The position numbers and the translations under genes were made by a program. The notes under the pieces were generated by a model that had not been told where the DNA came from, ran no database searches, and saw only the letters and a program-made list of their open reading frames with translations. From a virus: 64,000 nucleotides of DNA. The DNA is taken from positions 1 through 64,000 of the IMG/VR virus record IMGVR_UViG_3300045988_172778; one strand, 5' to 3'. Numbering within the stretch: the stretch's first letter is position 1; the number at the start of each line of letters is the position of its first letter. This document shows positions 14,834-63,938 of this stretch, one piece after another.

Positions 14834-15051
14834 GATACGATCTCTGTTACGTAGGACAGACCGTCAAAACGCATTCCATAGAAACAAGTTTTGGAACTGG
14901 AGTATTATTTGATAAAGAAATACTTCTGCGAATAATTCATCTAAATCCAGAAACTCACACTGTGGACGTTTGTATGGTAGAAGATTACGGTTATTATAAT
15001 TGCGTCCTACCACGCACTCTAAAAAATGCAAAATTACATTCGGGCGGCTAA
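14830..15051 (+). CDS. hypothetical protein (73 aa), related small domain
   Basis: MRYDLCYVGQTVKTHS. ATGA overlap with the previous stop. Confidence 0.5.
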   Translation: MRYDLCYVGQTVKTHSIETSFGTGVLFDKEILLRIIHLNPETHTVDVCMVEDYGYYNCVLPRTLKNAKLHSGG

Positions 15052-39524: not shown

Positions 39525-41453
39525 ATGAGAAATTTTTCGAAAGAAGAGTTATATGAATTATATATAACTCAAAACAAATCAAAAAGAGAAGTAGCTGAAA
39601 TATTGCATACTAACGAGAAGACTTTGGGCGATTATTTTAAAAAATATGGAATAAAAAAATCAAAAGAAGATGTCGTTAGAGCAAGAGAATTGACATGCTT
39701 GAAAAATTTTGGTTCAACAAACCCAATGAAAAATATTGAAATCGCGCAAGAACTTCGTTCCAAACAAATAGATAGTGGTAAAATTAAAGATATACCATAC
39801 GAAGAGCTTTATGATGTTTTGGTTAATAAAAAAATGCTTGTAACCAATGCGGCGAATTTTTTTCATACTTCAATAAGCACCATAAAGAGACTTGCAAAAG
39901 AAAACGGGATTGAAATTTGTAAAGAAGAATTAAAATCCGTTGATAAAGACGAGTTGGAAAATTATTATATTACAGAAAAACATACTCGCGAAGAATGTGC
40001 AGAGCATTTTGGAGTATCTTATTCTCATATTAAAACGTTTTTGAAAAAGTATAAAATCGAAAAAAGTAAAGATGAGATTTTTGAAAACATTAAACGTGGG
40101 CATAAGCGTAAAACTGGATATGAATATGCTTTGCAAAACCCAGAATCGATAGAAAAACAAAAGGCCACTTATAAAAATAGAACCAAAGAGGAAAAGTCGG
40201 AGACAATTGAAAAACGCAAAAATACCTGTATGGATAGATTTGGTGTGAATAACCCTTTGTGTTCGAAAGATATAAAAGAAAAAGCTTTTGCCACTAATAT
40301 AGAAAGATATGGATATAAAACATCAATTCAAAATCCAGAAATTCGTAAAAAAGCGGAAGATACTTTATTTGATCGGTTTGGAGTCAGGAACCCGTCTTTA
40401 GTTCCCGAGTTTAAACAAAAAAGAGAAAACACCATGCGAGAAAGATTTGGTGTTTGTAATTACGGAGAGATTGTCTTATCGGAAGATATTAGGAATTTAC
40501 TTAATGATAAAGATAAATTCAAAAAATATGTTTTAGATAATAAGTTGTCGACAACGTATGATATCGCGGAAAGTATAGGATGTTCGATTACAACTATTAC
40601 AAACAGAATTCACGAGTATAATTTAGAGGATTTGGTGAATAGGTCTCAATCGCATTTTGAGACGGAAATCAATCGTATTCTGACCGATTGGAATGTCAGG
40701 CATTATAAAACAAGACAAATTTTAAGTAACAAACAAGAAATAGATTTTTATTGTCCGAATGAAGCGGTTGGTTTTGAATTTAATGGTAATTGGCCTCATT
40801 GTTCGATTAATAAAGATAAAAAATACCACATGGACAAATCATTGGAAGCGCAAGAAAAGAATGTAAGATTTGTTCATATATATGAATACGAATGGTGTAA
40901 CCCCCAAAAACAGCCAATAATATTATCTTTAATGCGTGGAGCGCTTGGGCTTTTTGATAAAAAAATATATGCAAGAAATTGTAAAACAAAAGAGGTTGGA
41001 ACAAAAGAGTATTTCGACTTTTGTAATCAAAATCATACCCAAGGTTATAGGCAAGCAAGGGTTATTTATGGGCTTTATTTCAATGATGAATTAGTTCAAA
41101 TAATGAGTTTTTCTCATAATGATAAATATGAGTGGGAGATAATTCGTGAATGTTCTAAAATCAATACTCAAGTAATTGGCGGTAACTCAAAGCTGTTTAA
41201 ATATTTTATAAAAACGCAAAATCCAAACAGTATTTTTAGTTATTGCGATTTTAATAAATTTAATGGCAAAGGCTATGAGTTATTGGGTATGAAATTTATA
41301 GGATATACTGGTCCAGATATGAAATGGTATTTGAAAGGCAATATAGTTATAAATAGAAGTCCAAGTAAAAACAAAGAACTCAAAGAAAAAGCTATTGCCC
41401 AAATTTGGGGCGCTGGTTCTAAAAAGTATTTGTGGATAAAACCGCAAGAATAA
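39525..41453 (+). mobile_element. free-standing Hef-like homing endonuclease (HTH repeats + repeat array + Vsr/PD-(D/E)XK-like core)
   Basis: Three HTH repeats (ELYELYITQNKSKREVAEIL...). Repeated RFGV.NP...PE units. EIDFYCPNEAVGFEFNGNWPH. KIYARNCKTKEV...NHTQGY...YGLYFNDELVQIMSF. AT-rich. Confidence 0.5.
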
Positions 41454-46485: not shown

Positions 46486-47322
46486 ATGGCTAATTATATT
46501 CTTGGCGATGTTATGAAAGCCGAAGCCTTTGTCCGTGGCGAAGACGGCAAACTTCAGCATTATTTCAGCGCGAATACAATGACTGATAGCACGCTTAATA
46601 TATCTGTTACCGCCGAAGAAATTCGTGGTGGTTGGGGAAACCAGCTGCTTGGTAAAATATTCCATGACACTAACTTCGGTGTAAATCTTACTGAGGCTAT
46701 GTGGTCGCTTGATTATCTTGCTGCTCAAATTGGCGAAGAAGTTAAGAAGGGCGCTGGTAAAGATCTTAAATCCGTTGCTGGAACAGTAGCGGCCGAAGGC
46801 GCTCTTACGGTTACTATTCCCGAAGGAGATACTATAGCTCCCATGTTCGACAAGGCGGCTGGTTTCTGTGCGGCAGCTGATAATACTCTTGTAGTTTGGG
46901 TTAAGGACTGTAACGATGAAATGTTCACTTATACTGCTACGAAGGATGGAGATGGAAATACTTATACGTTCCAACTTGTTGGCGATGCTAAACCCAAGGT
47001 TGGCGCGGTTTGTGTTACTTACCCCACTGAAGTGACTGATTGCGAACAACTTATAGTTTCCGCTGCTTACGCTCCTAAGGAATTTAGCTTATTCCTTTAT
47101 GGCAAACTCTTTGCTGGTAATGGCTGCCAAAAATCCAAAGGTAAATATGCTGGCAAAATAACCATCGAAATTTCGAGATTCCAACTTGATGGTACGGTTG
47201 ATCTTACGATGAACCCGAGTTCCGCTGCTTCCGTTTCGCTTAACGGTCAGGCTCTTGCTTCTGGCTGCAGCTGCGATGGCGAACCTCAATATGCTACCAT
47301 TACAACTATCATAAATAAATAA
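46486..47322 (+). CDS. abundant virion protein candidate (278 aa; tail tube/tubular protein?)
   Basis: ATG after AAAGGAG. Gly/Ala-rich beta-type sequence. Function is a guess. Confidence 0.6.
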   Translation: MANYILGDVMKAEAFVRGEDGKLQHYFSANTMTDSTLNISVTAEEIRGGWGNQLLGKIFHDTNFGVNLTEAMWSLDYLAAQIGEEVKKGAGKDLKSVAGTVAAEGALTVTIPEGDTIAPMFDKAAGFCAAADNTLVVWVKDCNDEMFTYTATKDGDGNTYTFQLVGDAKPKVGAVCVTYPTEVTDCEQLIVSAAYAPKEFSLFLYGKLFAGNGCQKSKGKYAGKITIEISRFQLDGTVDLTMNPSSAASVSLNGQALASGCSCDGEPQYATITTIINK

Positions 47323-47504: not shown

Positions 47505-47513
47505 TAATAAATG

Positions 47514-47561
47514 GAGACCGTTGAATGTGTTAATTGCGATACGTTCGCGGTCTCTTTTTTA
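47514..47561 (+). terminator. intrinsic terminator
   Basis: GAGACCG...CGGTCTC with an inner stem, followed by TTTTTTA. Confidence 0.65.
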
Positions 47562-47678: not shown

Positions 47679-48290
47679 ATGTTATATTTAGATTATGCTA
47701 AACAAATTGATTCGGGGTACATTTTAAATCTTTTTGCAGATTCATTTGAAGACATAAAAGAAGTATCCAATGGTAAAAGTTTTGTAACGAAGAATGGCAC
47801 TAATTACGGAGTACCACAAGCGGGAAGTACGGTTACAATAACCACTCCTAATGCACCCAAGACTACTTATGTTATAGATGCAGAAGGAACGTGGGTAGTC
47901 GCTGAGAATATCTCTTATTCTGCGGTTGTAGCAAACCCCACAGACGAAGCGACGGAAAAGCTGGAGAAACTTAAGGTAAATGACACAACTTACGGCGTGG
48001 GGTCAAAGTTATACAGAAAAACGGTTATTGTTACAAAAGATGAAAATAAATGTTATTTTACAACATTTGAGAGCAATAGCAATAAAATAGTCGGGCGTTA
48101 CAGACTTTTTGGTATCGGCAGTTGCTTAATTGATGGAGTTTGGTATCCATGTAACAATATCAGAATGACGGAAGAAGTAAATTCTGAAACAGATTTCAAC
48201 GCTCAAATAGGTTACGTTAAATCTGAGGTTAACGTTTTTGTAGCTAAATTCGAAAACGCAACAGCAACAATAACCGTGGAAGAGGTGTAA
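47679..48290 (+). CDS. tail fibre paralogue, MLYLDYAK-type N-terminus
   Basis: The first ~75 aa are collinear with 48332-49447. Confidence 0.6.
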   Translation: MLYLDYAKQIDSGYILNLFADSFEDIKEVSNGKSFVTKNGTNYGVPQAGSTVTITTPNAPKTTYVIDAEGTWVVAENISYSAVVANPTDEATEKLEKLKVNDTTYGVGSKLYRKTVIVTKDENKCYFTTFESNSNKIVGRYRLFGIGSCLIDGVWYPCNNIRMTEEVNSETDFNAQIGYVKSEVNVFVAKFENATATITVEEV

Positions 48291-48331
48291 TATAAATAAA
48301 ATAAAAAAAATAAGATAAAAGGAGGATTAAT

Positions 48332-49447
48332 ATGTTATATTTAGACTATGCAAAACCTGTTGATGGCGGTTATATACTTAATTTCTTCGCCGATAAAGTT
48401 GAGGATATGGAATCCATAACTGGCGGCAAAGAATTTATCACAAAGAACGGCACGAATTACGGCGTTCCCCTTAAAGGTTCGACGGTCGTAATAACCGCTC
48501 CTGACAAAGAGAAGAAGACGTTCGTTCTCGATGAAAATGGGGAATGGAACGAGGGCGGATTAGACCCGAACCAATTTTACACGAAGGAAGCTGCTGACGA
48601 AAAATTCATGGAAAAGGCAGGCGGCTCGATAACTGGCGACCTTACCGTTGGTGGTAATCTTGTTGTAAACGGAAAGACGACCACGGTTGAATCCGAGAAC
48701 CTCGCCGTTAAAGATAAACTTATCGAGGTTGCGGCTGGAAACGCGGCGAAGCTTGCGGCACCCGCTGGTCTCGTTGTCCCGAAATATGACGGGACGAATT
48801 CTGGTGCGCTCGTATTTGACGGCGACGGAATTGCTTATGTCGGTGACGTTGTTTTGAACGCGAAAGGCGATATAGACGTTTCGCAGAGTGACCTTGCGGC
48901 GTTGGCGGTAAAGAAAGATATACCCACTGATTATCTTGTCGGTGGCGAGCAGACAGCCACTTCTGAAGACGATGGCGGAGCTAACGTATTCACGTTCACG
49001 AAAGCTGACGGAAAGACCGCAACATTTACAGTGAAGAACGGATCAAGGGGCGCAGTTGGTCCCGCAGGCCCCGCTGGCGCAAAGGGCGAAACTGGTGAAG
49101 CAGGAGCCCAAGGCGCGGTTGGCCCGACTGGTCCCAAGGGAGACAAAGGAGACGTAGGTCCGACTGGCCCGCAGGGTCCGAAAGGCGATGCGGGTGCGGC
49201 TGGTGCAGCGGGTGCGGCTGGTCCGAAAGGTGACGCAGGTCCGCAGGGACCTATTGGTCCGACAGGCCCGAAAGGAGATCAGGGTGAGACTGGTCCCGCA
49301 GGTGCAGCTGGCGCGAAAGGCGCAACGGGTGCGCACGTTACAGCTATAACGCTTACGAAGGATTCGACGGGCGCGATAACTAGCGGCACGGCTTCTTTGA
49401 GCGATGGCACGAGCGTTCCCATAACGGTAACGGTTGCAGAAGCGTAA
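48332..49447 (+). CDS. collagen-like tail fibre, MLYLDYAK-type N-terminus
   Basis: N-terminal paralogy plus ~94 residues of GXY. Confidence 0.7.
49048..49330 (+). repeat. collagen-like GXY triplet tract
   Basis: [22 protein letters not shown]...GAKGATG. Confidence 0.9.
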
Positions 49448-49523
49448 CAAATAATATAAGCGTGGCGATTTCTTTCATAAATTGAAGGCGATCGCCGCGC
49501 AAAATAATAGAAAGGAGATAACA

Positions 49524-49856
49524 ATGGATACCGAAAAAATCGTTTTATATATTTCTTTAGGAATTGTTTGTCTTTGCTTAATCACAGCTTTAATTGTGAA
49601 AATTGTGAAGCTTTGCAAAATGCCCAAAGAAGAAAGAGAAAAGGTTATAAAGACTTATCTAAAAGGCATAATCATGCTGGCGGAAGAGGAAATTATTGGT
49701 ACGAAAAAAGGTGAGGAACGCCTTGCGATGGTTGAAGAATATTTCAATAAAAATGCCCCGCTGACGTATCGGATTATTTTGTTTCTTCTCGGGAAAGATA
49801 ATTTAAAAAATTTAATCGAAGATGCACTCACCGAGATCAAGGAAGCGTTACAATAA
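49524..49856 (+). CDS. small N-terminal-TM protein, LL-H-holin-like (110 aa)
   Basis: Start at MDTEK after AAAGGAG. One TM segment, then a charged helical tail. Resemblance is weak. Confidence 0.4.
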   Translation: MDTEKIVLYISLGIVCLCLITALIVKIVKLCKMPKEEREKVIKTYLKGIIMLAEEEIIGTKKGEERLAMVEEYFNKNAPLTYRIILFLLGKDNLKNLIEDALTEIKEALQ

Positions 49857-49913
49857 TATAGAAATTTTGTTGTAGAGGTATTTCCTCGAGGTGACGGTAG
49901 AGGGAGGGAAACA

Positions 49914-50996
49914 ATGGCGCAAAAATATAAAAGTAAATGGACGGGTCCACAAGTCGACGAGGCAGTCGGGAACGTCTCAAAAAAAATAGACAAAGACAGT
50001 TTGACTGGCAGTAACGGGATAACTATTAACAAAACCGTTTCGACGATAGAAATAAGCGGAGTTGAATTGGTAAAAAAGACGACAGAAGCTAACAGGGTAT
50101 ATGGAACCGATTCAACTGGCGGGCAGGCTTTAAAGCCGTTTGCCAACACCCCAACCCCTTCTGCCTTGGCGGCGTATAACGACGTTTCTAACTTAAAAAC
50201 GTCTGTGCCCGTCGAAGATTTGGATTGTACGAACAAGAAATATGTAGATGATGCAATAGCAGGAGTGGCAGAAAGTGTAACAGTCGACGGAACCTCGCTT
50301 GTCAAAGATACCGACGGGAAAATCCAGCTCAATCAGGAGTACATCGACTATCTCGACAACCAGCTCTATCAGCCGCCCGCTATTTCGGTTTTCACCATGC
50401 TTGATGCGGCTGGTGCTGCGCTTCCCACGAGTAACGAGTTGGGCACGACTTTAAGCGCGGCGGCGTTTAATCACCAAGAAACGAACATCAAGAACATCCA
50501 GGGTGATAACGTCGAGTTGCACATTAACAATGCGGCGGCTGCGACAATTTCAGCCGCGAAGAAAGACGTTGCAACAAAGGTGACTCTCACAACGGCGCAG
50601 AGCATAACAAACAGTACCAAATTCACACTCAAAGGCACGAACACGAAGGGCGCGGCTTTCAGCAGAGATTACCAAGTCAACTTTTACAGATACGCATACA
50701 CGGCGACGACAGACGCGACAACCGCTCCGACAAGCGGCGCAACGCAACAAGCGGCAGTCAGCACTTTCGCGTCGAACGGAAGTACGTTCAACTACACCAA
50801 GGGCGGGTATATATACTTCTATACCGACAACACAGGCAAGAAGGTTCAGACGAACGTTTTAGGTCAGTGGGCGGATGTTGATACGACAGACATGGGCAAA
50901 GTTACGCTCACGCAAAGTAACGGCTCAACACACGAATATACGTGTTACAGAATCGGACCCTTCATCGAGACGGGTTCCGCTAAATATAGAGTCTAA
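49914..50996 (+). CDS. tail fibre paralogue, MAQKYKSKWTGPQVD-type N-terminus
   Basis: Shares its N-terminus and NKKYVDDAIAGVAESV with 57729-58736. Confidence 0.65.
   Translation: MAQKYKSKWTGPQVDEAVGNVSKKIDKDSLTGSNGITINKTVSTIEISGVELVKKTTEANRVYGTDSTGGQALKPFANTPTPSALAAYNDVSNLKTSVPVEDLDCTNKKYVDDAIAGVAESVTVDGTSLVKDTDGKIQLNQEYIDYLDNQLYQPPAISVFTMLDAAGAALPTSNELGTTLSAAAFNHQETNIKNIQGDNVELHINNAAAATISAAKKDVATKVTLTTAQSITNSTKFTLKGTNTKGAAFSRDYQVNFYRYAYTATTDATTAPTSGATQQAAVSTFASNGSTFNYTKGGYIYFYTDNTGKKVQTNVLGQWADVDTTDMGKVTLTQSNGSTHEYTCYRIGPFIETGSAKYRV
50238..50280 (+). repeat. exact 43-bp direct repeat, copy 1
   Basis: AAATATGTAGATGATGCAATAGCAGGAGTGGCAGAAAGTGTAA. Confidence 0.95.
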
Positions 50997-51008
50997 GGAG
51001 GGTGAATT

Positions 51009-51368
51009 ATGGCTTTAACGATAAATACAAACATTAAGAATGAGGCTAACGGCTACTCTTTAGACGCTTCGCAAGTTAAGGGCGGATATGTGGTAGTCGC
51101 GAATGAAGACGAAAGAAACGCAATCCCCGCCGCAACGAAGGTAAATGGAACGACGATTTACCAGGCGGATGTTGGGAAGGAATATAGATGGGATGGCAGC
51201 GAGTGGCTCGAGGTTTCGGGAGGCGGGACCGAGGTTACTCCAAACCCAACCTTAAGCGGAACGGAAGCGGCTCTTTCCGCCCTTCAAATAGGCGATACGA
51301 AGTATCGAATAGAAGGCTCTTTAACAACTCTTATGGTTGGCATTGATTCCTCGCTTTTAGGAGGTTGA
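51009..51368 (+). CDS. hypothetical fibre-module protein (119 aa)
   Basis: ORF with AAGGAGGG SD. Confidence 0.6.
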   Translation: MALTINTNIKNEANGYSLDASQVKGGYVVVANEDERNAIPAATKVNGTTIYQADVGKEYRWDGSEWLEVSGGGTEVTPNPTLSGTEAALSALQIGDTKYRIEGSLTTLMVGIDSSLLGG

Positions 51369-51370
51369 TT

Positions 51371-52846
51371 ATGGCAATTAAAAGAGCGATAAAAGCGGGA
51401 GATAAAAGTATAATTTCATTTAAGAAGGCAATTAAGGTTGGCGAGATTACTCAATTAGTCAATTCTACTACAATTAGTCCATTACCATCTATAAGTGGTG
51501 TGTCCGTGACGTATGATGGAAAAGGTACAATTCATTTATCGGGCACTTGCCAAGGTGGTGGCGGCAGAGTCTCTTGGGGTATTTATATGGAGATGATAAA
51601 GGGGCATAAATATCTGACAGAATCTTTTATTGATGATGCACTTTTATATTTAACAAATTATAATGTAGGTAGTATTTTTCAGGGTATTTTATCAACTACG
51701 CCTATTTTTGAATTTACTAAAGAAAGTGGAAAATATAGAATGGGCTGGAATCTTCTTAATGAAAAAACTTATAATGTAGATATTACCCCCCAACTCTTCG
51801 ACCTGACCGATATGTTCGGTGCGGGACACGAGCCCACCACCGTTGCTGAGTTTAAGGCGAAGTTCCCTGAAGCGTATTATCCTTATCAAAGGGCTGTTTT
51901 GAACGTGTATAATAAGGTGGTCAGACCGTGCGTGAGAAAGGGAGAGGTTGTACAGTTAGTCAACCCAGTAGATTTTGGTTTTACAACACAGACTGTTAAT
52001 GGTATTACTTTTACAAATAATAATGATGGAAGTGTAACTATAAACGGAACAGCAACTAGTGATGCAGCATATAGATTAATATTAAACAGAGACAAAATTA
52101 TAAATGGATATGTATATTTATATGGTTCTGAACAAAATACTAATGATTATGGTGTTGCATGGGGAACTAATTTGCCACAGAATTTAACTTTTAATACTGC
52201 TTCAATTAATAATAATTATACTGTTATAGTTAAAAATGGGGCTACGGTAAATAACATAACTATTTTTCCGCAGATATATAATCTCACTGCCATGTACGGA
52301 GCAGGTAACGAGCCAAAAACTCTCGCTGATTTCAGGAAAGATTATCCAGAGAGTTATTATCCGTATAGCCCAATTCAGACGAAGAATTTGTTCGATATAA
52401 GGAAAGTTAGTGGGTTGATTAGTAGTCTACTTGGCAATCTTAATTATTATCTTACTAAAAATTTAACTCAAAATTCTTTGAAAATTCGTTATGGTGGATA
52501 CGGAACGGGAGCGTTTTTAAAAGAACCATATATCTTGTCAGCAGGGACTTATACATTTAGTTGTAATTGTGATTATGATGTTATTAACAACAGAGGCGGT
52601 GTTCATTTGTTCGTTGGAAAGAAGGCAGCAGACGGGTCGAGAATGAACGAGATAGCTAGTGGTCCTTACCGCCAGGTACATCGTTTAGTTTTAACTTTTA
52701 CCCTGGCGGAAGAAACCGAAGTTTATTTATCTCTGCAAGGTGATGGCGGACCTACTAATTATACTAACCTAAACAACGTATTTTTCAATATTCAACTCGA
52801 AAAAGGCTCAGTCGCCACAGATTACGTGCCGCATGACTACATTTAA
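51371..52846 (+). CDS. tail fibre/receptor-binding candidate with internal duplication (491 aa)
   Basis: ATG 6 nt after AGGAGG. Repeated ...PQLFDLTDMFGAGHEPTTVAEFKAKFPEAYYPY / PQIYNLTAMYGAGNEPKTLADFRKDYPESYYPY. Confidence 0.6.
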   Translation: MAIKRAIKAGDKSIISFKKAIKVGEITQLVNSTTISPLPSISGVSVTYDGKGTIHLSGTCQGGGGRVSWGIYMEMIKGHKYLTESFIDDALLYLTNYNVGSIFQGILSTTPIFEFTKESGKYRMGWNLLNEKTYNVDITPQLFDLTDMFGAGHEPTTVAEFKAKFPEAYYPYQRAVLNVYNKVVRPCVRKGEVVQLVNPVDFGFTTQTVNGITFTNNNDGSVTINGTATSDAAYRLILNRDKIINGYVYLYGSEQNTNDYGVAWGTNLPQNLTFNTASINNNYTVIVKNGATVNNITIFPQIYNLTAMYGAGNEPKTLADFRKDYPESYYPYSPIQTKNLFDIRKVSGLISSLLGNLNYYLTKNLTQNSLKIRYGGYGTGAFLKEPYILSAGTYTFSCNCDYDVINNRGGVHLFVGKKAADGSRMNEIASGPYRQVHRLVLTFTLAEETEVYLSLQGDGGPTNYTNLNNVFFNIQLEKGSVATDYVPHDYI

Positions 52847-52863
52847 AAGGAGGAAAATGAGAA

Positions 52864-54156
52864 ATGGCAGTAAATTATACAGATGTCCAAAAGACAGAAA
52901 AATATATATCAAGAACTAACTTTGACGCCTTGGAAATGGCGGCAGTCCCCGAAGGGACAGAATTCAATATCGTTGATCCGATTCACGAGAGCGATTTAGA
53001 CAGTGACGTTTTACAGAAGCTTAATAACAACGCGAAGATAAACACAGCGAATACTTTTACAGCGGCACAGACGTTTAAGAAAGATATCACGATCGAAGGG
53101 AACATCATTCAGAACGGCAGTGCTTATGAGACGCACGCGGAAAAGCTTTATACGAAGAATGACATGATTTACACGCGCGATGGGGCGACCGCCGCGTTGG
53201 CAGATAACGCTTATACGGGAATTCAGGCAGTCAAGTATGACGGTACGAATGACGGGCAGTTGGTGTTCGGAAAAGATGGCGTCGCACGTGTTGGAGATGT
53301 CGGGAATACACAGCCTTTGGCGACGAGGGCGGAGGCAGGCGCGATTGTGGACAAGCACTTGCTTCAGTGGGACGCGGCTGGACAGACACTGGTTGACAGT
53401 GGAAAGAGCGTGAGTGATTTAGAGGGTGGCGGAGGAGATGTAATCGCCGCTGGCACTAATACTTTCACGGGGAACAATACTTTTACTAACGGTATAACTG
53501 TGGCGGCAGATAGTACGGCTACTTCTGCTCATATCGTATATGGAAGCGATGGTATTAAAGTAAAGAAAGAAGGAACCCCTGCGGCTAGCCCAGAATTTTC
53601 TATTAAAATTCCTACTGATATACCAGGAACTTTTGCGGTAATAAATGCTGTAAGTAATACCCTCAATACTACTGGTTTAAATGTTTCAAGTTCTGCAACA
53701 ATAGAAAATATGCTTCTTGGCGGTTTAACTTTTAAACCAACTGTCACATATTTTAGTGTAGGAAGTTTTAAAATCACGCTCCCTACAAAGACAAGCACTC
53801 TCGCCACAACAGACGATATAAGCTCTTTTGTTAAAAATAATGCTTCTACAAATTTTTCGGTTTATGATGAAGTCAGCGGTAACAAATCTACACTTGGTTA
53901 TAGCGGGCTAACATTAGAAGATCCTGTTGCTCATAATACTTGCACACTAAGTGCCGCTGGATTAGTACACAGACAAATGAGTAATGATGGAGCAATAACA
54001 AACCATAATACTACCTTGGCATTTGAGAGTGCTGGTTTAACTACAACATTAACAGTTCCTAATAAAACTGGTACTCTTGCTCTTACAGGTGATATTCCGA
54101 TTAGTTCGGCAACTTTAAGCGACAACGACACAACCTTAACGCTTATTCTTAGATAA
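52864..54156 (+). CDS. tail fibre protein (430 aa)
   Basis: Fibre-like NTFTGNNTFTNG repeats. SD is present. Confidence 0.6.
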   Translation: MAVNYTDVQKTEKYISRTNFDALEMAAVPEGTEFNIVDPIHESDLDSDVLQKLNNNAKINTANTFTAAQTFKKDITIEGNIIQNGSAYETHAEKLYTKNDMIYTRDGATAALADNAYTGIQAVKYDGTNDGQLVFGKDGVARVGDVGNTQPLATRAEAGAIVDKHLLQWDAAGQTLVDSGKSVSDLEGGGGDVIAAGTNTFTGNNTFTNGITVAADSTATSAHIVYGSDGIKVKKEGTPAASPEFSIKIPTDIPGTFAVINAVSNTLNTTGLNVSSSATIENMLLGGLTFKPTVTYFSVGSFKITLPTKTSTLATTDDISSFVKNNASTNFSVYDEVSGNKSTLGYSGLTLEDPVAHNTCTLSAAGLVHRQMSNDGAITNHNTTLAFESAGLTTTLTVPNKTGTLALTGDIPISSATLSDNDTTLTLILR

Positions 54157-54167
54157 GGAGGAACGGT

Positions 54168-54887
54168 ATGCCTTGGGTAATAGATAGTAAACTTAAAGTG
54201 GAAACGACGTTGCTTCAAAAAGTCGTGGTAAATGGGGAAGAGCTTTATAAAGTTGATTGCGTGGATAAAAACGGCGTAAAGCACACGGTTTTTCACAGGT
54301 ACTGGGTCGAACCCACTGGCGGAAGCAGCGATAGCGAAACCATGGACTCGGTGGGCAATGGCAGTATCGCCATAGGGATAATTAACCACGCATTTACTGA
54401 TGAATTAAAGAATGCGTGGGGCGTTCTCGAGTTCGATACGGGATTTCATTCTGATTTAGCACAAACTTACAATTTCAGGAGAGAAGTACCCGACGAAGGT
54501 AGGGACGAAGAAGTCGATATAGCTCAAACGGTATTAGACTTTTTCTGTTGCATAACGAAAAAGGACTATGCGAATTTTGATATTCTTCAGTCGGCTCTCA
54601 CAGATATTTGCAACGATGGCTCGTTTAGTCAGCTCATAGAGCAATATGGATTAGCCACCAAAATAACCGAATGGATAAATACATGGATTCAGGAGCAGAC
54701 CGACGCGGGGACTTATACCGAAGCCGCATATCAAAGCTTCATCTCAACGGTTGATGGAAGCGGAACAAACCTCAAAGAAAAGATGAACGGCGACGAGAGC
54801 TTTCAGCAGGCAAGACAAGATTTCTTGACGCTTATGGCAAATCAATTAGGGATTACCAAAGACGAGCTGTTAGGCGGAAACTGGTAA
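54168..54887 (+). CDS. hypothetical fibre-module protein (239 aa)
   Basis: ORF with TAAGGAGG SD. Confidence 0.6.
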   Translation: MPWVIDSKLKVETTLLQKVVVNGEELYKVDCVDKNGVKHTVFHRYWVEPTGGSSDSETMDSVGNGSIAIGIINHAFTDELKNAWGVLEFDTGFHSDLAQTYNFRREVPDEGRDEEVDIAQTVLDFFCCITKKDYANFDILQSALTDICNDGSFSQLIEQYGLATKITEWINTWIQEQTDAGTYTEAAYQSFISTVDGSGTNLKEKMNGDESFQQARQDFLTLMANQLGITKDELLGGNW

Positions 54888-54909
54888 GCAATACAATAAG
54901 AAGTAAAAT

Positions 54910-54948
54910 GGCAGACTTTAAGATGTTAGCGGCTTGTTAAAGTCTGCC
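54910..54948 (+). terminator. 12-bp perfect hairpin
   Basis: GGCAGACTTTAA-15 nt-TTAAAGTCTGCC, then TATTT. Confidence 0.5.
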
Positions 54949-54973
54949 TATTTACAAATATGGAGGGATTTAG

Positions 54974-55867
<894 letters not shown>

Positions 55868-55908
55868 ATAATCTTATTAAAAAAATCAATCAAGGAGGGA
55901 TTTGCCAT

Positions 55909-56919
55909 ATGGCAAGAACAACGGTATATAACGAAGATTTGTCAAAGGAGTGGCAGATCACAAACCCGAAAAATCAGAAATTACTCAAAGAATTTATTCG
56001 TTATTGCGTGGCGAACGATAAAAGCCCGCAAACTTGTAACCAATATGAGTCGCAACTCAAAATCTTCTTTTGTTGGAATTACAGGGAAAATGACGATAAG
56101 TTTTTTGTTGACATAAAGAAGCGCGAGCTTGTGAACTTTTTCGGTTGGGGGCGGAGTATCGGTTGGAGCTCGTGCAGGCTTGCTTCTCTTCGCGCGGCGT
56201 TAAGTTCGTTCAGCAATTACATAGAACGAATACTTGATGAGGATTATCCGACATTCAGAAACCTTGTGAAGGTTCTCGAACCGATTCACCTCGAAGCGGT
56301 TCGAGAAAAGACGATAATCGAGAAAGATGATATAATGGCAGGGATTGAGCGGTTAGTTGCGCTTGGAGAATACCAATACGCGTGTTTCCTCTCGCTCCTC
56401 TTTTCGTCTGGAATGAGAAAAGCGGAAGCCGCGCAGATGAAGGTCTCGTATTTCACGACCGATAAGGTAGTCGTGTTTAGGGGACTCGCTTATATGACTC
56501 CGAAAATCAGGACGAAAGGGCACGGGGCACGTGGCAAGCAGGTGCCGAGATACGTGTTCAAAGAAACGTTTGACAAATACTTTGAGCTATGGCTTAAAGA
56601 GCGCGAAAAGCTCGGGATCGAGATAGACGATTTATTCGTTGTAAAAGGTGCCGACGGGAGATACCGACCCGCAAAAGGGCAGAATTTTTCACATTGGGCA
56701 GTGAAAATCGGGGAGTTAATAGGCGTAAATTCACTATATTGTCACAGTTTGAGACACGCGTTTACGACGTATTTGAAACGGCAGAACTTCCCGACCGACG
56801 TCGTTCAGAAAATCCAATCGTGGGGAAGCGCAGATATGGTGGCGAGATATGATGACAGAAGCGATAGCGAAGAGTTGGATAGCTTTTTTGAAAAAATGAC
56901 CGAAAAGGAGAGAGAATAA
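55909..56919 (+). CDS. tyrosine recombinase (XerC/D / phage-integrase family)
   Basis: N-terminal SAM-like core-binding region. SSGMRKAEA (Arg I), HSLRHAFTTYL (H-x-x-R), WGSADMVARY (catalytic Tyr). Confidence 0.7.
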   Translation: MARTTVYNEDLSKEWQITNPKNQKLLKEFIRYCVANDKSPQTCNQYESQLKIFFCWNYRENDDKFFVDIKKRELVNFFGWGRSIGWSSCRLASLRAALSSFSNYIERILDEDYPTFRNLVKVLEPIHLEAVREKTIIEKDDIMAGIERLVALGEYQYACFLSLLFSSGMRKAEAAQMKVSYFTTDKVVVFRGLAYMTPKIRTKGHGARGKQVPRYVFKETFDKYFELWLKEREKLGIEIDDLFVVKGADGRYRPAKGQNFSHWAVKIGELIGVNSLYCHSLRHAFTTYLKRQNFPTDVVQKIQSWGSADMVARYDDRSDSEELDSFFEKMTEKERE

Positions 56920-56921
56920 GC

Positions 56922-57719
56922 ATGGTAGAAAATGGAACGAGAGCGGACATCGCCCGTAAAAGATTTGAAGACACAAATCAATTAACAGCAAAACACATGA
57001 TATATGTCGGGACTGGCGACACAGAAGAGGTTACCCTCGGAAAGGATAAAAGTTATATTTACAAAACGGAGGGGAAGAATATTATAAGCGCGATTAATGA
57101 CGCGACTAAGGATGAAGCGGGTATCATAGATAAGGCACACAGCGCAGAAACAGCAGATCAGGCAACTAATGCAGAGACCGCGAAAAAAATCGTATCAGAA
57201 GACGATAGTAGCATCACTATAATAAAAGGGAAAAGTAATAACAATCAAAGTAGGATTGTCCCTCCTGGAGGCGTTGAGGTGGATTTAGGTGCTTCTGGGT
57301 ATGAGTTTGCTAAGGTTTATGCGAACATTTTTACAGGGACGGCAAATGCAGCGATAGACACTAATTTTTCGAGAGAAACTTTTAAAAGTAGTGTAGTTTC
57401 AAATACATCTTTTGGACTTTCTGAGGCGGGATTTTATTATATTTATTTTGTAATAAATTCTCAAAGGATAAATCTTGGTTTGATATATTGGGATGGGGAA
57501 AATGATAGTTACAGCCCAATAATGGCGAGTTATAGAGATAATGGTGGTTCTTTTGAGATATTATGCGATGAATATTTTGCGCGCATCTACCCCTTCGAGC
57601 TCGGAGGAAAAATCGAAGGAAAAATTGCGATATATAAAAAAAGTTCGCTTAGGAGTAAGCCAGATGCTTGGGCGTCTGCATCATCAGGGGTTACAATATA
57701 TTACAAAAAAATCAGATGA
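56922..57719 (+). CDS. tail fibre-module protein (265 aa)
   Basis: ORF with AAAGGAG SD. HSAETADQATNAETA is fibre-like. Confidence 0.6.
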   Translation: MVENGTRADIARKRFEDTNQLTAKHMIYVGTGDTEEVTLGKDKSYIYKTEGKNIISAINDATKDEAGIIDKAHSAETADQATNAETAKKIVSEDDSSITIIKGKSNNNQSRIVPPGGVEVDLGASGYEFAKVYANIFTGTANAAIDTNFSRETFKSSVVSNTSFGLSEAGFYYIYFVINSQRINLGLIYWDGENDSYSPIMASYRDNGGSFEILCDEYFARIYPFELGGKIEGKIAIYKKSSLRSKPDAWASASSGVTIYYKKIR

Positions 57720-57728
57720 GGTGGCGGC

Positions 57729-58736
57729 ATGGCACAAAAATATAAAAGCAAATGGACAGGGCCACAGGTCGATTCAGCGGTTGATCAAATTACCGATAAG
57801 ATAGACAGAGGCGAGATCGGGGTTGCAGGCGGGATCGCTTCTCTCGGAAGTGATGGAAAGGTTCCGAGTTGGCAATTACCAACAGCAAAGAGTGTTACGG
57901 CTGATAATTTTATAGGTAAAGATGGAATTACAATCGACAAAGCAGCTGATTCTGAAAAGATAGAGATAAGCGGTAGTGGATTGGTAAAGAGAGGAACCAA
58001 CGTTAATGTTACAAATTATGGTCACGTATATGGATATAATGGAAATGGAACAAAAGTCATAGATAAAGAATTTATAGTTAACCAAGATGCTGAAACGCAA
58101 TCAATTGCTCTTAGAACTAACAAGGGTGAATTAATTGCTAATACTACAGATACAGCAGGGGACCTTACCCTCACCAACAAGAAATATGTAGATGATAACT
58201 TTGTAGCTAAGGATACAACTCCCGCAAGAGTAATATATGCACACTCTCCTGATGGTACTCCTTTAATGTTACATCCTCAAGTTAGTGATACTTTAAGTGA
58301 ATGGTGGCTTCCAGTTTATAGACCAAGTGTATCAGGCGATACTGTAACAGGTAATGCAGTGCTTTTAACCGCCGTACCAACAAGAGATTATCAATGTGCA
58401 AACAAAAAATATGTAGATGATGCAATAGCAGGAGTGGCAGAAAGTGTAAGCCGTTATAAACATCACGTGAAATTTACATTTGTTTCTAACACTTATAACG
58501 GAAGTTTTTTCACCGATATTTATTCAAATCAGAATACAGTGATAGATTCTCTTGCAAGTTTGAAGACTTATTTAGGGGATGAATTTACGAAGGATTTGTA
58601 TGGGTATTTAGAATATAGCAACGCTTATCGTTTAGGCAATTTAATAACCGACACAACAGTATTTTACATACAAAACGGTGTTGGGACTCAATCAATCTCT
58701 AACTTTACTATTTCTGATACAGTAACGACAATCTAA
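57729..58736 (+). CDS. tail fibre paralogue, MAQKYKSKWTGPQVD-type N-terminus
   Basis: Paralogue of 49914-50996. Confidence 0.65.
   Translation: MAQKYKSKWTGPQVDSAVDQITDKIDRGEIGVAGGIASLGSDGKVPSWQLPTAKSVTADNFIGKDGITIDKAADSEKIEISGSGLVKRGTNVNVTNYGHVYGYNGNGTKVIDKEFIVNQDAETQSIALRTNKGELIANTTDTAGDLTLTNKKYVDDNFVAKDTTPARVIYAHSPDGTPLMLHPQVSDTLSEWWLPVYRPSVSGDTVTGNAVLLTAVPTRDYQCANKKYVDDAIAGVAESVSRYKHHVKFTFVSNTYNGSFFTDIYSNQNTVIDSLASLKTYLGDEFTKDLYGYLEYSNAYRLGNLITDTTVFYIQNGVGTQSISNFTISDTVTTI
58407..58449 (+). repeat. exact 43-bp direct repeat, copy 2
   Basis: Identical to 50238-50280. Confidence 0.95.
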
Positions 58737-58751
58737 AGATAAGGAGGATAT

Positions 58752-59669
58752 ATGAATACGGAATATTATTTATCTAGATTCAGCGGGGAAATGATAGACG
58801 GGAAAGTGGATAAAATGCCGAAATCAAATCCTCGATCAGATAGTTTAATTGTAATTAACAAGGATGGGCGAAGCGGCGGGTATTTAGCATTATCCGACAT
58901 CGATCCGTGGAAATTTGTAGACTCGGCATTATCGGCGACATCAGATAATACCGTTGAAAATAGCGCGATTACGAAGGCGCTTTCTGAAAAAATCCAATAC
59001 CCAAAAGTTGATGGAGTAAACGGTTGGTGTTTATTCAGAGACAAAAATGGTATTGCGTGGAAAGAGATGGTGCCTGGCGATTTTAAACAAGGAGACAGCG
59101 CTTACGACATATGGTTGCGTGCTCCCCATCAAGGCACGAAAATAGACTTCCTTAACAGCTTAATAGGCATAGCTGGCGAGAGGGGCGCTATAGGCGGCAA
59201 AGGCGCGACAGGCGCACAGGGCGCAAAAGGCGAGACAGGTGCACAAGGCAGTAAAGGCGCGACAGGCGCACAGGGCGCAAAAGGCGCGACGGGCGCGACG
59301 GGTGATCGAGGAAGTCAGGGCGCCTCGGGTCGGCAAGGCGAAACGGGCGATACAGGTGCAGAAGGCCCGAAAGGCCCAACAGGTGATAGCCCAAAGGGTA
59401 ATACGGGTGCAGAAGGACCAAAGGGTAATACGGGTGCAGAAGGACCAAAGGGTTCCAGGGGAGATCAAGGGCCAATGGGTCCACAGGGGGCACAAGGAAA
59501 CCCAGGAGCTTGGGGTTGGGAATCAGGTTGCGGCGGAAGTTCTCCAAGTAAAGGTTCTGATTTCCTATATGAGCCGATAGAGAGTGCCGTTATGTTTCAG
59601 ATGCTAAATGATAGTGGGGAGACAGAGGGGGTAAAAATAACTATGAGTATTACAGGGAATACGATTTAA
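58752..59669 (+). CDS. collagen-like tail fibre
   Basis: N-terminal paralogy ([23 protein letters not shown]). GXY tract. Confidence 0.7.
59174..59510 (+). repeat. collagen-like GXY tract with a perfect 2 x 27-nt tandem repeat (59394-59447)
   Basis: AAGGGTAATACGGGTGCAGAAGGACCA occurs twice. Confidence 0.9.
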
Positions 59670-59680
59670 AAGGTGAAATT

Positions 59681-61228
<1,548 letters not shown>

Positions 61229-61254
61229 AATATTTACAATAATGGAGGTACAAT

Positions 61255-61582
61255 ATGATTTCAGTAAAAACATTTTACGCTTATGGTAAAGAAAAGCCAA
61301 TTACAGGCGAGAGTTCTGTTATTTTTAACAATTCTGCGGAGACCCTCACTATGCAAGTTGACGAACTAGCGGGTAGTGTTGAGTTATATGGTACCGCAGA
61401 TTTTGATTCAGATGTTTTTTTACAAACTCACGGGCAATAGCTCGTCTTTTGAGTTAGTAAACAAAATCACAACCGACGGGATTTATCACTTCTCAATCGA
61501 AGGCATTGCGAAAATCAAATTTGAGGTCGAAAACACCAATAAAGATTTGATTGTATTTTGCCGAATGACAAAGGGGGTATAA
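61255..61582 (+). CDS. small fibre-module protein encoded in two frames joined at a T7 run
   Basis: Frame 1 reads protein-like up to ...DFDSDVF. The +1 frame reads protein-like from YKLTGNSSSFELVNK... The T7 run is at 61415-61421. Confidence 0.45.
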
Positions 61583-61586
61583 TCTT

Positions 61587-62273
61587 ATGACGGATAAATT
61601 AGCGAGAGATTTAGCATTAAGTGCTTTAGACAAAGTGAATAAAACCGTCGAAGGTGTTCCGAAGGATTATGTCGATGAGCATTTGTTGAAGAAGGTAGAT
61701 AAAATAGAAAGTTCGTCCGCAAACCCGCGCTTATACGGAGTTAGCGAGGCGGGGTCTCAAACTAGTTATTTCGCCACCCAAACCGCCAACGCGTACACAA
61801 TTCCGATGAGAGACGCGAGCGGCAGATTTCAAGTTGAAAGCGGGTTGGCTCCGAAACAAGCCGTGAATAAAGAGCAGCTTGACGCTGCGTTAGATACGGT
61901 CGCGAAGCTGGCGGAGCCTAACACTTTTACGGAACAAAACACATTTACATCGGAAGTGAAGTTTTACGGAACCGTTGAGCACACGTCCAACGTAAATATA
62001 ACGAACGGTTTTCTGAAAATATTAAACGGTAAAGACAAAGATTATGTCACGACGTATAATGTTGATAATATTAAGGTCGAGGAAAATGGAAGCGAATACA
62101 CACTGGTATTTCCGAATCAATCTGGCACATTAGCGCTAACCGATGATATTACGGCGAAGATAAATGAAAAAATCGGGTTTAAGTATTCGCAATTGAAAAA
62201 TAATGATGTTTTAATAACGGTGCGATTCAAAAAGACGATACGTGGGAAACCAACGACACGGACGCCTCGTTAA
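61587..62273 (+). CDS. tail fibre, zero-frame product (228 aa)
   Basis: ORF with AAGGGGG SD. The last ~14 residues (RGKPTTRTPR) look off-frame. Confidence 0.6.
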   Translation: MTDKLARDLALSALDKVNKTVEGVPKDYVDEHLLKKVDKIESSSANPRLYGVSEAGSQTSYFATQTANAYTIPMRDASGRFQVESGLAPKQAVNKEQLDAALDTVAKLAEPNTFTEQNTFTSEVKFYGTVEHTSNVNITNGFLKILNGKDKDYVTTYNVDNIKVEENGSEYTLVFPNQSGTLALTDDITAKINEKIGFKYSQLKNNDVLITVRFKKTIRGKPTTRTPR

Positions 62274-63832
62274 GTATTCGGCATTCTGACGCGATTAATC
62301 AATCGGAAATAGCAGTATCGAAAGCATTTGCAGAGATAGGTGTTCAAGAAGTAACAGGGCAATCTAGTGCCACATCTCAACTTACTTTAACAACGGATAA
62401 CGTTAGTTTAACAAGTACGCGCGGAGCGGATACTTATACGACCGTCATTATAAACCCCGATGGGGCGACAATCAACGGTGAGAAGATAGCGACCGAGAAA
62501 ACGGTTAACGCGAAAGTAGCACGTATCCCTGAAGGTGTCGAATTAACCGACCCCGAAAGCGCGACACAGGGGAATTTGACGGCGGAGCAGCTCGCAAAAC
62601 TTCAGTTCAACAAAGCGAATTATATCCTTTTCGCAGGGAAGAAATATGACTTGCGGAATGAGCGTTCGCAACAAGATTCGTTGTCTTACGTTTACAATGA
62701 TTACTTGAACAGTCGTTGTATTCAAGACGTTATAACGATCACGGTTTCGACTCGTTCGTGGGTGCGTAATTCGTGCACGTTGGTGACAAACAAAGATTAC
62801 GGCGATGGTACCGCTGGCGCGGTGTCGATAAAGAAAGACTTTTCTGGCGGGTTACAATTGGCGACGACAGATGGAGATTTAAGCATATATGGTGCGGTCG
62901 ATGCGGATATAACTGGCAGGAATTCCAAACGCCCGATTACGCCTATAAACCTCAACAAAGCGGTTTTAGCGGCGTTGACCGATGCGAAAAAGGTTGAACC
63001 AACCGAGCAACAAAAAACCGATTTTAAGGCAGCATGGGGAATTATCGACGCTGTAAATATTCTCGACGCGGAAATGTCCGATGATAGCACTAATGCAGTT
63101 CAGAACAAGGTTATTAAAGCAGAATTAGATAATCGTGTTAGGTGCTCAACAAACGTCCAAAGCGGGCAAGTAAAGGTCTACTGCGCGACACAGAATAACC
63201 CAAACGATGTTTGTTTGGTTTCGAGTTCTGGAGTACAAAACTCGATTGCTCGATATACGTCGACGGGGCAGCTCGCTGTCGGGAGAGAGCCGAGCGGCGA
63301 TATGGAAATCGCTAACAAAAAATTTGTGGAAGGAATTGTTCCGAAATATGGGGCGGAACTTCCAAACCCAACCAACGACGCATACAAAATCGGGTGCTCG
63401 TTTTTAAACACGACAACTGGCGGCTTATATGTTTTGGTTGCTTCTGGAAGCGCGAGTAATCGTTCTTGGCAGTTACAAACCACGATTGAAAAGCCGAAAT
63501 GGAGAAACACGCTACCACACATAAATGACACGCAGGAAATCGACGCGACAAAGGTCTTATTTACGAAAGTCACGATTACGACGATCGATAGTACAAACTT
63601 TCCTGGAATGAACGGAAAATCTGTAACAATTCAAGGATTGAGTTTTTATGGGTTTGCGGCTGGCACGATTGTGTGTGATGAGATAACGGGCGGTATACAG
63701 TATAGCCCGTGTTTTATTGGCTCAATAACTTCGAGCAGGGCGTCTGGAGTTTTAATAAAAGGCTCTAACGCGGTCGCGGTTATAAGTGTTGATAATCCCG
63801 AAGTTTCTTTTGCTTACGAGTATTTGTGGTGA
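62207..63832 (+). CDS. tail fibre, -1-frame continuation (no start codon of its own for 123 codons)
   Basis: I read the frame codon by codon as open from 62207. The first ATG/GTG/TTG is TTG at 62576. Fibre-like sequence runs throughout. Confidence 0.55.
   Translation, partial: CFNNGAIQKDDTWETNDTDASLSIRHSDAINQSEIAVSKAFAEIGVQEVTGQSSATSQLTLTTDNVSLTSTRGADTYTTVIINPDGATINGEKIATEKTVNAKVARIPEGVELTDPESATQGNLTAEQLAKLQFNKANYILFAGKKYDLRNERSQQDSLSYVYNDYLNSRCIQDVITITVSTRSWVRNSCTLVTNKDYGDGTAGAVSIKKDFSGGLQLATTDGDLSIYGAVDADITGRNSKRPITPINLNKAVLAALTDAKKVEPTEQQKTDFKAAWGIIDAVNILDAEMSDDSTNAVQNKVIKAELDNRVRCSTNVQSGQVKVYCATQNNPNDVCLVSSSGVQNSIARYTSTGQLAVGREPSGDMEIANKKFVEGIVPKYGAELPNPTNDAYKIGCSFLNTTTGGLYVLVASGSASNRSWQLQTTIEKPKWRNTLPHINDTQEIDATKVLFTKVTITTIDSTNFPGMNGKSVTIQGLSFYGFAAGTIVCDEITGGIQYSPCFIGSITSSRASGVLIKGSNAVAVISVDNPEVSFAYEYLW
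62228..62234 (+). promoter_or_regulatory. candidate -1 ribosomal frameshift site C_AAA_AAG
   Basis: AAA AAG are in the zero frame of 61587-62273, inside the 66-nt overlap with the downstream open frame. Confidence 0.45.
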
Positions 63833-63890
63833 GATAAAACCCTCGTTTTATTCAATGGAGAAAATTTAGGATATTTTTTAGGTAAAATTA

Positions 63891-63938
63891 GAGACCTCGC
63901 TACGCGCGAGGTCTCTAATTTACTATATTTTTTTAGAA
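63891..63938 (+). terminator. intrinsic terminator
   Basis: GAGACCTCGC-TACGC-GCGAGGTCTC, with a T-run 12 nt later. Confidence 0.6.

Follow-up and report, generated by a model that had tools for sequence, protein, structure and literature searches.

A gene for an Xer-like tyrosine recombinase (55909-56919, plus strand) lies in the middle of an array of fiber-like genes that occupies 47.6-63.9 kb of the viral record IMGVR_UViG_3300045988_172778 from IMG/VR, of which we analyzed a stretch of 64,000 nucleotides (nt), hereafter called the window. The array, including the recombinase gene, fills the interval between the tail tube gene and the tape-measure protein (TMP) gene, since a YomU-family tube gene is found just upstream and the TMP gene downstream. 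Our results make it probable that a hypervariable locus of receptor-binding protein (RBP) genes grew in this interval around a pre-existing recombinase of the YomM/Tyrovirus gp50 type, and that this recombinase is not a fiber switch. An initial annotation of the window had suggested either that the recombinase rearranges the fiber genes or that it acts elsewhere, and the evidence presented below favors the second of these options.

The recombinase gene appears to be an old resident of its site rather than a fiber-switching enzyme because it is found at the same spot in many related phages. Homologs occupy the slot between tail tube and tape measure, on the same strand, in no fewer than five divergent lineages, namely the 74.7-kb gut phage MT835481.1 (40% identity), L009 and L020 (48-49% identity), L018 and L019 (44-45% identity), the Bacillus Tsamsavirus Skywalker, in which the order is major tail protein gp67, gp68, gp69, Xer recombinase gp70, and TMP gp71, and the SPbeta-group phage SPR (L numbers designate loci retrieved from sequence collections, L001 being MT835481.1). 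The interval is compact in those lineages, most of which lack fiber genes beside the recombinase, and there it has as neighbors small genes, the gene of a Holliday-junction resolvase (in L001, where it immediately precedes the recombinase; phrog_843, E = 1.6e-22), or metabolic cargo such as a phosphatase (L009). In L009, a 150-kb relative, the interval downstream of the recombinase (11778-15120) contains a metallophosphatase-like gene and, as read by eye, putative genes of an anaerobic ribonucleotide reductase, NrdD and NrdG; metabolic cargo would then be located inside the tail operon. Homologs of u4, the tube gene of the window, are found upstream of the recombinase in L001, L005-L010, and L018-L020.

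The placement of the recombinase in the array was pointed out as unusual in the initial annotation, and in general it is, but it is also ancestral and already documented. A recombinase has the same placement in the case of Tyrovirus gp50, of phage Perkons, and of the Lactococcus 949 group, which the authors of that study call curious (PMC9703825). In each Tsamsa-like genome, tblastn gave a single matching place, that of gp70, and not the other two Tyrovirus recombinases. The gp50/gp70 recombinases share with that of the window 28-30% identity (phmmer E = 1.6e-32), a collinear position, and the late-gene strand. The SPR homolog, spr_54, annotated as an "integrase family protein" in the yom tail region, shows 29% identity over 249 amino acids (aa; E = 1e-22) and is likewise encoded between a YomU-family tube and a YomI-type TMP; it differs in that its C-terminal catalytic part is not alignable with the window enzyme, SPbeta phages have a separate and proven serine integrase (SprA), and an enlarged fiber array is absent.

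An alternative is that the recombinase is a lysogeny integrase, with its attP elsewhere in the ~149-kb genome or adjoining the gene as for Tyrovirus gp50, and that its position in the array is incidental. We consider this unlikely. The recombinase family does carry the Pfam/PHROG signature of integrases, Tsamsa-like phages are temperate, and a putative attP, consisting of two 11-bp inverted repeats around a 6-bp core, is located immediately downstream of Tyrovirus gp50 (PMC9703825); moreover, variable cargo often gathers at att sites, which could explain the hot spot. However, whereas the Tyrovirus gene is followed directly by this putative site and has no surrounding fiber genes, the window recombinase is followed after 2 nt by the next open reading frame (ORF) and is embedded in ~16 kb of fiber-like genes. 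As the initial annotation had recognized, the spacing is that of a tight operon (41 nt upstream, 2 nt downstream), and these gaps hold no attP-like core site. Terminators bracket the late operon in whose middle the gene stands, between structural-type genes, and neither a repressor nor an excisionase gene adjoins it. SPbeta phages integrate via the serine recombinase SprA (PMC4191935), and therefore the tyrosine recombinase family is not the integrase there, although SPbeta-group phages possess it. Finally, a search of 185,579 species genomes turned up no integrated copy; the only matches were 8 contigs from metagenome-assembled genomes (MAGs), phage-sized or short and in taxonomically inconsistent bins, a negative result limited by the lack of isolates.

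We scanned the 64 kb for core-type sites, defined as inverted repeats with 11-bp arms and a 5-9-bp spacer, and obtained 23 matches versus ~3 expected; these are terminators, apart from three other candidates (including 11020-11047). The only core-type repeat near the recombinase gene, inside its ORF (56275-56305), was rejected, as it is not conserved at synonymous sites in relatives. Another candidate is the single perfect 30-bp palindrome of the window, GTACTATACGAAATCGATTTCGTATAGTAC (12+6+12; 14530-14559), which overlaps the stop codon of a 69-aa ORF and lies in a small plus-strand gene island (13619-15051) within the minus-strand early region. This palindrome was rejected as a site for the recombinase, and it does not help the case for an integrase, being fully symmetric, absent from relatives, and not matched exactly by any IMG/VR sequence; a role as an operator or as a regulatory hairpin is conceivable.

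The recombinase had been assigned to the XerC/D type, in agreement with our results: the ORF matches PF00589 (E = 4e-16) and, weakly, PF13495 (N-terminal SAM-like core-binding domain), and the nearest PDB profile matches are XerH (E = 1.6e-11), XerA, an XerC-like protein, and XerD. Xer recombinases, which act in dif/cer-like resolution systems, are its closest sequence relatives. Residues R170, H279-x-x-R282, and Y314 are invariant across 8 homologs, and K203 and W306 align with the catalytic K and H of XerH, so the full catalytic set is present and the enzyme is predicted to be catalytically complete. A 14-bp perfect palindrome, TTGCCATATGGCAA (55896-55914), is centered on the start codon of the gene; it is identical in L005 and partly retained in L006 and L007, and it could be coincidental or serve in autoregulation.

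The idea that the recombinase is kept as a relic, inactive or domesticated to a role other than recombination (as a DNA-binding protein, say, or a structural accessory of the virion or its assembly), would account for the constant position in the late structural operon of very distant phages and for the SPR protein, whose C-terminal catalytic region is not alignable and of which only the N-terminal SAM-like domain matches Pfam. Yet the R, K, H-x-x-R, W/H, and Y residues are conserved across 30-97% identity in the window, in gut relatives, and in Tsamsavirus, which argues for retained catalysis and makes this idea extremely unlikely.

The array itself is one same-strand (plus) block of 16-17 ORFs with a terminator on each side, and the ORFs listed in the initial annotation were all recovered at the same coordinates and on the same strand. 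Its features, with the ORFs numbered g01-g17 from left to right, and those that border it are as follows.

46486-47322, plus strand: u4, tail-tube-family protein (YomU_Tube; PF27173, precomputed on an identical gene; phrog_2729), the left backbone anchor of the variable interval
47513-47560, plus strand: intrinsic terminator, GAGACCG...CGGTCTC plus a T-run, which ends the head-tail operon ahead of the array
47679-48290, plus strand: g01, fiber-like, anchor type 1 (MLYLDYAK); missing in the close relative L005
48332-49447, plus strand: g02, fiber-like, with anchor type 1, a g07-like shaft motif, a collagen repeat, and a short C-terminal domain
49524-49856, plus strand: g03, 110-aa membrane protein, weakly holin-like (PF09682 at E = 2.6e-4, below cutoff), a backbone gene
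49914-50996, plus strand: g04, fiber-like, with anchor type 2 (MAQKYKSKWTGPQVD), one shaft module ending in NKKYVDD, and a distal domain
50216-50280, plus strand: direct repeat D4, copy 1, NKKYVDDAIAGVAESV linker codons, the last 43 nt identical to copy 2
51009-51368, plus strand: g05, 119 aa, internal-deletion derivative of a 520-aa gene of L005
51365-52846, plus strand: g06, 493 aa, fiber/RBP-like, with an internally duplicated domain
52864-54156, plus strand: g07, 430 aa, fiber-like, with a conserved N-terminal half and varied C termini among homologs
54168-54887, plus strand: g08, 239 aa, no anchor
54903-54955, plus strand: hairpin with 19-nt arms and a 15-nt loop, no T-run
54974-55867, plus strand: g09, fiber-like, with anchor type 3, a collagen repeat, and a small C-terminal domain
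55909-56919, plus strand: Xer-like tyrosine recombinase (YomM/Tyrovirus gp50 type)
56922-57719, plus strand: g11, 265 aa, 2 nt downstream of the recombinase
57729-58736, plus strand: g12, fiber-like, with anchor type 2, two shaft modules (two NKKYVDD linkers), and a distal domain
58385-58449, plus strand: direct repeat D4, copy 2
58752-59669, plus strand: g13, fiber-like, with anchor type 3 and a collagen repeat
59681-61228, plus strand: g14, fiber-like, with anchor type 3, a collagen repeat, and a 260-aa distal domain
61255-61582, plus strand: g15, frameshifted in the window (61 aa plus an overlapping 68 aa)
61587-63832, plus strand: g16 and g17, one fiber gene of ~748 aa, which a 1-nt deletion in a T-run near 62210 divides in two
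63885-63921, plus strand: strong intrinsic terminator at the end of the array

Most junctions inside the array are gaps of 2-41 nt with Shine-Dalgarno sequences, and the larger intergenic gaps contain a strain-specific hairpin, a frameshifted coding remnant, or terminators. Since terminators bracket the array and the internal gaps are short and carry Shine-Dalgarno sequences, it looks like one late transcription unit, in which the recombinase gene would be cotranscribed with the fiber-like genes.

The array had been described as about 14 fiber paralogs built on three N-terminal anchors. The three anchor families are real, as established by BLASTP, but only 7 of the 16-17 ORFs carry them, and the array does not consist entirely of fiber paralogs, given that g03 is a holin-like membrane protein, g05 and g15 are small remnants, and g16 and g17 are a single gene. 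Anchor type 1 is shared by g01 and g02 (62% identity over 72 aa, E = 4e-29), type 2 by g04 and g12 (E = 2e-15, comprising the N terminus and a 30-aa block at 73%), and type 3 by g09, g13, and g14 (32-40% identity over ~130 aa, E = 3e-23 to 3e-13). Reading the sequences directly, we noticed that anchors 2 and 3 have in common an extreme N-terminal motif, Y/K-x-S-x-W/F/H-T/S-G-x-x-V/I-D-x-A/K-V, which is present in g04, g09, g12, g13, and g14, as well as in L010 (start near 8029) and in L006 (5852-6340), and which suggests a common docking peptide for at least five of the putative fibers. The collagen-like spacers reported in four genes were confirmed, PF01391 being found in exactly g02, g09, g13, and g14 (E = 1e-15 to 1e-17), where the collagen repeats are flanked by non-collagen N- and C-terminal domains, together with matches to tail-fiber PHROGs.

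The modular character of the array, with anchors joined to different distal domains, was also borne out. Homologs of the g04 and g07 families were drawn from a database of 5.8 billion proteins. Those of g07 have an N-terminal half with >90% identity and many different C termini, some of which carry BppU_N, Peptidase_G2, LRR_5, or CBM_5_12 domains; those of g04 consist of one of two anchors, 1-4 shaft modules each ending in xNKKYVDD, and a common distal domain, and a co-circulating strain possesses a g04 with an additional g12-type module. In both families, shuffled modules can be seen directly. A conserved anchor with exchangeable distal domains, as in the g04 and g07 families, is typical of collagen-like phage tail fibers and modular RBPs. 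From the collagen repeats, the PHROG tail-fiber and minor-tail matches, their place within the tail module, and the domains that homologs carry, we infer a role as fibers or RBPs. Searches of PDB sequences with phmmer gave no match for g04, g06, g07, or the intact g16-g17 ortholog, and an AlphaFold2 monomer model of g07, built from a 28-sequence alignment, was of low confidence (mean predicted local distance difference test score, pLDDT, of 53; predicted template modeling score, pTM, of 0.27).

Tandem arrays of fiber or spike genes are found in phages with multiple RBPs, such as Klebsiella phage phiK64-1 and the CBA120-like phages. The array of the window shares with them tandem RBP genes, conserved N-terminal anchors on diverse distal domains, and module exchange; in contrast, the phiK64-1 and CBA120-like arrays are situated in the baseplate or distal tail region of myo- or podoviruses, whereas that of the window belongs to an SPbeta-like siphophage and separates its tube gene from its TMP gene.

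Comparison with six close relatives, in which the recombinase is 83-97% identical, revealed different numbers and kinds of genes on both sides of it; where the locus varies most, the recombinase alone stands out as a sharply conserved island. When the window is compared with L005, the DNA is near-identical from ~25 nt before the ATG of the recombinase gene to its stop codon and unrelated outside. The block g15-g17 is located upstream of the recombinase in L006, L007, and L010 and downstream of it in the window and in L005; the moved block is bounded by a ribosome-binding site (RBS) and a stop codon, with no shared flanking motif. Such breakpoints at gene boundaries look like the usual mosaicism of phages. 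Homologs of g03 are directly upstream of the recombinase in L007 and L008 and are also present in L005 and L006, whereas in the window g03 is six genes away. The g11 gene, checked in relatives, is not conserved.

Other differences affect individual genes. Compared with L005 (3979-5541), g05 retains an N-terminal part of 68 aa (96% identical) and a C-terminal part of 57 aa (86% identical) and has lost ~400 aa internally. The g08 protein is homologous to the C-terminal domain of a 460-aa protein of L005 with a type 3 anchor (11938-13320), which corresponds to a domain fission or fusion. The collagen part of the L005 ortholog of g02 is 28 aa longer; across samples, g02 encodes 371, 386, or 399 aa and g14 encodes 515 or 509 aa (two GXY triplets), and these length differences are a polymorphism in the number of collagen repeats. 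The g15 gene is one 108-aa gene in two assemblies and is frameshifted in the window and in one other (L002 8681-9007; L003 8680-8865). Likewise, orthologs of g16-g17 in L005, L006, and L010 are single ORFs of 742-748 aa, whereas the window and three independent assemblies of the strain share a deletion in a T5-run (GTTTTT to GTTTT), which leaves a coding-like "gap" of 302 nt. We had considered a joining of g16 and g17 by -1 slippage at TTC AAA AAG, an explanation now replaced by the 1-nt deletion; the split gene may have been fixed as a pseudogene, may vary in phase through its homopolymer, or may be rescued when ribosomes shift frame. The hairpin at 54903-54955 was rejected as a conserved site, as it is strain-specific and found only in contigs of the same strain.

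In L028, a relative from ENA assembly ERZ28614911 (scaffold_146), an IS605-family OrfB/TnpB gene with a Cas12f-like TNB domain (276-1448) stands between a tube-associated 60-aa gene and the first fiber gene, and g03 is then followed by a different gene set (167, 85, 44, 187, and 523 aa). The TnpB insertion is another sign that the interval tolerates insertions.

In this context of turnover, the recombinase might itself drive the diversification of the fibers, by deletion, duplication, or exchange between direct sites, in the manner of a one-strand shufflon or integron, or by excision of its own 8.2-kb segment. We regard this as very unlikely, even though the recombinase is embedded and co-oriented in the array in 6/6 close relatives while the flanking genes turn over, and even though the g15-g17 block is on different sides of it among relatives. 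The link that the initial annotation had implied between the recombinase and fiber diversity is not supported by our results: the slot is kept without adjacent fibers in relatives, the recombinase appears to predate the array, and no recurring site was found at the borders of the other genes. Fiber diversity without the recombinase, which the initial annotation had named as a refuting observation, was likewise seen. Homologs of g07 occur in multi-gene fiber arrays of unrelated 171-177-kb phages, together with Mtd_N, YadA-like, and LRR_5 proteins, and no recombinase is encoded within 10 kb of these equivalent arrays. In addition, gene order is the same as in the window in three independent metagenome assemblies.

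The search for recombination sites was negative in several respects. Across 44-64 kb, no inverted repeats exceed chance size, the best being a 30-nt pair at 70%, and in agreement with the initial annotation the array contains no inverted coding segments, all ORFs being on the plus strand. The only k-mer of at least 12 nt that recurs at least 3 times in the array corresponds to the NKKYVDD linker codons, with all copies direct and within g04 and g12; direct or inverted repeats in the array are otherwise limited to collagen codons and paralogous coding repeats, and no recurring rix-, sfx-, or attC-like sites were found at the gene borders of the array.

These results also distinguish the array from known switching systems. 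The Rci shufflon belongs to IncI plasmids and uses sfx sites of 19 bp. The Rin shufflon belongs to Bifidobacterium prophages and has rix sites of 11 bp (PMC6109161). As in the window, both place a tyrosine recombinase next to genes for the variable C termini of receptor-binding proteins or adhesins; they comprise, however, a constant 5' part and promoterless 3' segments in both orientations, each with a crossover repeat, whereas the genes of the array are complete, have their own RBS and start codon, and are on one strand. Gin of Mu, Cin of P1, and Min of p15B are likewise encoded adjacent to tail-fiber genes, but these enzymes, invertases of the serine type, work on inverted sites together with an enhancer, and the array shows none of these features; the sole weak "DNA invertase" PHROG match in the window is the helix-turn-helix (HTH) of a DUF7487 gene (39525-41453). 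Integrons have attC-type imperfect palindromes of about 60-140 nt between their cassettes, which were not seen in the array, and intI is unlike the window recombinase, which is co-oriented with its neighbors and mid-array. As for diversity-generating retroelements, no repeat pair resembling a template and a variable repeat was present and the mismatches between the D4 copies are not adenine-specific, reverse transcriptase genes not having been searched systematically.

The D4 direct repeats in g04 and g12 flank an 8.2-kb segment that holds the recombinase gene, and in one sample this segment was assembled separately, a fact which at first sight supports excision. In sample ERZ27229667, the phage is represented by a 141,371-bp contig and an 8,288-bp contig (L027, k119_212364); the latter has identical 119-nt ends and runs from the C-terminal part of g04 through the recombinase to the N-terminal part of g12, and, at its 3' end, the 141-kb contig contains the N-terminal part of g04 followed by a g12-type module. 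The g04 of this strain possesses an extra shaft module that matches the second one of g12 exactly, an arrangement also seen in a 434-aa homolog (P0122). We rejected an excised circle or a tandem duplication as the origin of the 8,288-bp contig, since a repeat of at least 119 nt breaks the assembly; the split is an assembly artifact because the extra g04 module provides a direct repeat at least as long as the k-mer of the assembler. The repeats are, besides, coding linkers of paralogs rather than core-type sites, and they are confined to g04 and g12. Two other assemblies break in the N-terminal part of g04 (L026 at ~aa 31 and L032 at ~aa 56), which suggests within-sample microdiversity there, and the comparison shows co-circulating strains that differ by the exchange of a shaft module at the NKKYVDD linker.

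Several points nevertheless weigh against our main reading. A recombinase target, such as a dif-like site of 28-30 bp, was not found in the 64 of ~149 kb scanned, and lysogeny functions were looked for in 64 kb plus ~10 kb of the ~149-kb genome. The conservation of the recombinase as an island could be read as a functional association with the surrounding genes, and g15-g17 changes sides relative to it. Because long direct repeats flank the recombinase segment, a deletion of 8.2 kb by homologous recombination is possible, and with repeats of 43 nt to at least 119 nt both deletion and duplication of this segment are mechanistically possible; our evidence consists of consensus assemblies, which may hide minority rearrangements. 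The homology behind the fiber identity is weak, and the g07 model is of low confidence. The recombinase could be tied to the locus, either by excising, re-inserting, or duplicating blocks such as the 8.2-kb segment and g15-g17 late in infection, or by offering its site as a landing pad for foreign fiber genes. We give this proposal only a slim chance; if true, it would amount to a one-strand, tyrosine recombinase-based system of RBP diversification.

Our preferred model is that the Xer-like recombinase gene is an old resident of the late operon, kept between the tube and TMP genes throughout a broad lineage, and that in the sub-lineage of the window the interval turned into a hypervariable accessory locus, in which at least 11 fiber/RBP-like genes would have built up to either side of g03 and the recombinase, the two backbone genes. 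The fibers would have diversified by gene duplication, by homologous recombination at the N-terminal anchors and at the NKKYVDD linker codons between shaft modules, by changes in the number of collagen repeats, and by indels and frameshifts, with selection keeping the mosaic breakpoints at gene boundaries. The recombinase would be cotranscribed late and most likely acts on the whole phage genome; our preferred guess is an Xer/Cre-like resolution or cyclization of replicated or recombined phage DNA. Given the late-operon position, the conserved catalytic residues, and the separate integrase of SPbeta phages, such a late genome-level role is somewhat likelier than lysogenic integration.

The window appears to derive from a ~149-kb human-gut siphophage whose structural module is collinear with those of SPbeta- and Tsamsa-like Bacillus phages, and look-ups of exact proteins placed the same phage in several human-gut metagenomes, in contigs of 141-150 kb. 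Early genes are on the minus strand (~1-21 kb) and late genes on the plus strand from 21.5 kb to the end of the window, in the order major capsid protein (MCP), u1, tube, and recombinase, with the TMP gene beyond the array. The main landmarks upstream of the array are the following.

30081-31985, plus strand: large terminase
32396-34345, plus strand: portal
38246-39340, plus strand: MCP-like protein

The array is followed by genes for proteins of 162 and 1713 aa, by a DUF7487 gene, and then by the gene of the tape-measure protein (PF10145). Contigs of the phage group (L014-L021) were binned in MAGs labeled Bacteroidaceae, Odoribacter, Treponema, Lachnospiraceae, Bacilli, and others; these are mis-binned phage contigs in unrelated MAGs, and the host is therefore not readable from the bins.

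The structural module is interrupted by DUF7487/HTH homing endonuclease-like genes, one of which follows the MCP gene in the window (39525-41453) and another precedes the TMP gene in L002 (17270-18136), a locus of the same phage. In MT835481.1, genes of this type split the terminase and TMP regions (L001 1254-2123 and 19686-20645). The 642-aa ORF at 39525-41453 had been suspected to encode a second recombinase, a suggestion rejected upon its identification as a DUF7487/HTH gene. The early region encodes, on the minus strand, a GmrSD_N+HNH protein resembling a type IV restriction nuclease and an EcoRI-type adenine methyltransferase (8116-9351 and 9799-10791).

Both the type of recombinase and the modular RBP array are of known kinds, whereas the location and the size of the array are unusual. 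Our model explains away an apparent fiber-switching system and draws attention to a widespread recombinase family, noticed so far in passing, which is fixed in the tail operon of large siphophages of the SPbeta-, Tsamsa-, and 949-like groups and extends to abundant human-gut phages. The window also documents a large modular RBP locus, of at least 11 genes, whose place after the tube gene and before the TMP gene is unusual. The clear module boundaries of this locus, namely the anchors, the NKKYVDD linkers, and the collagen spacers, could guide the engineering of host range and the interpretation of microdiversity in gut phages.

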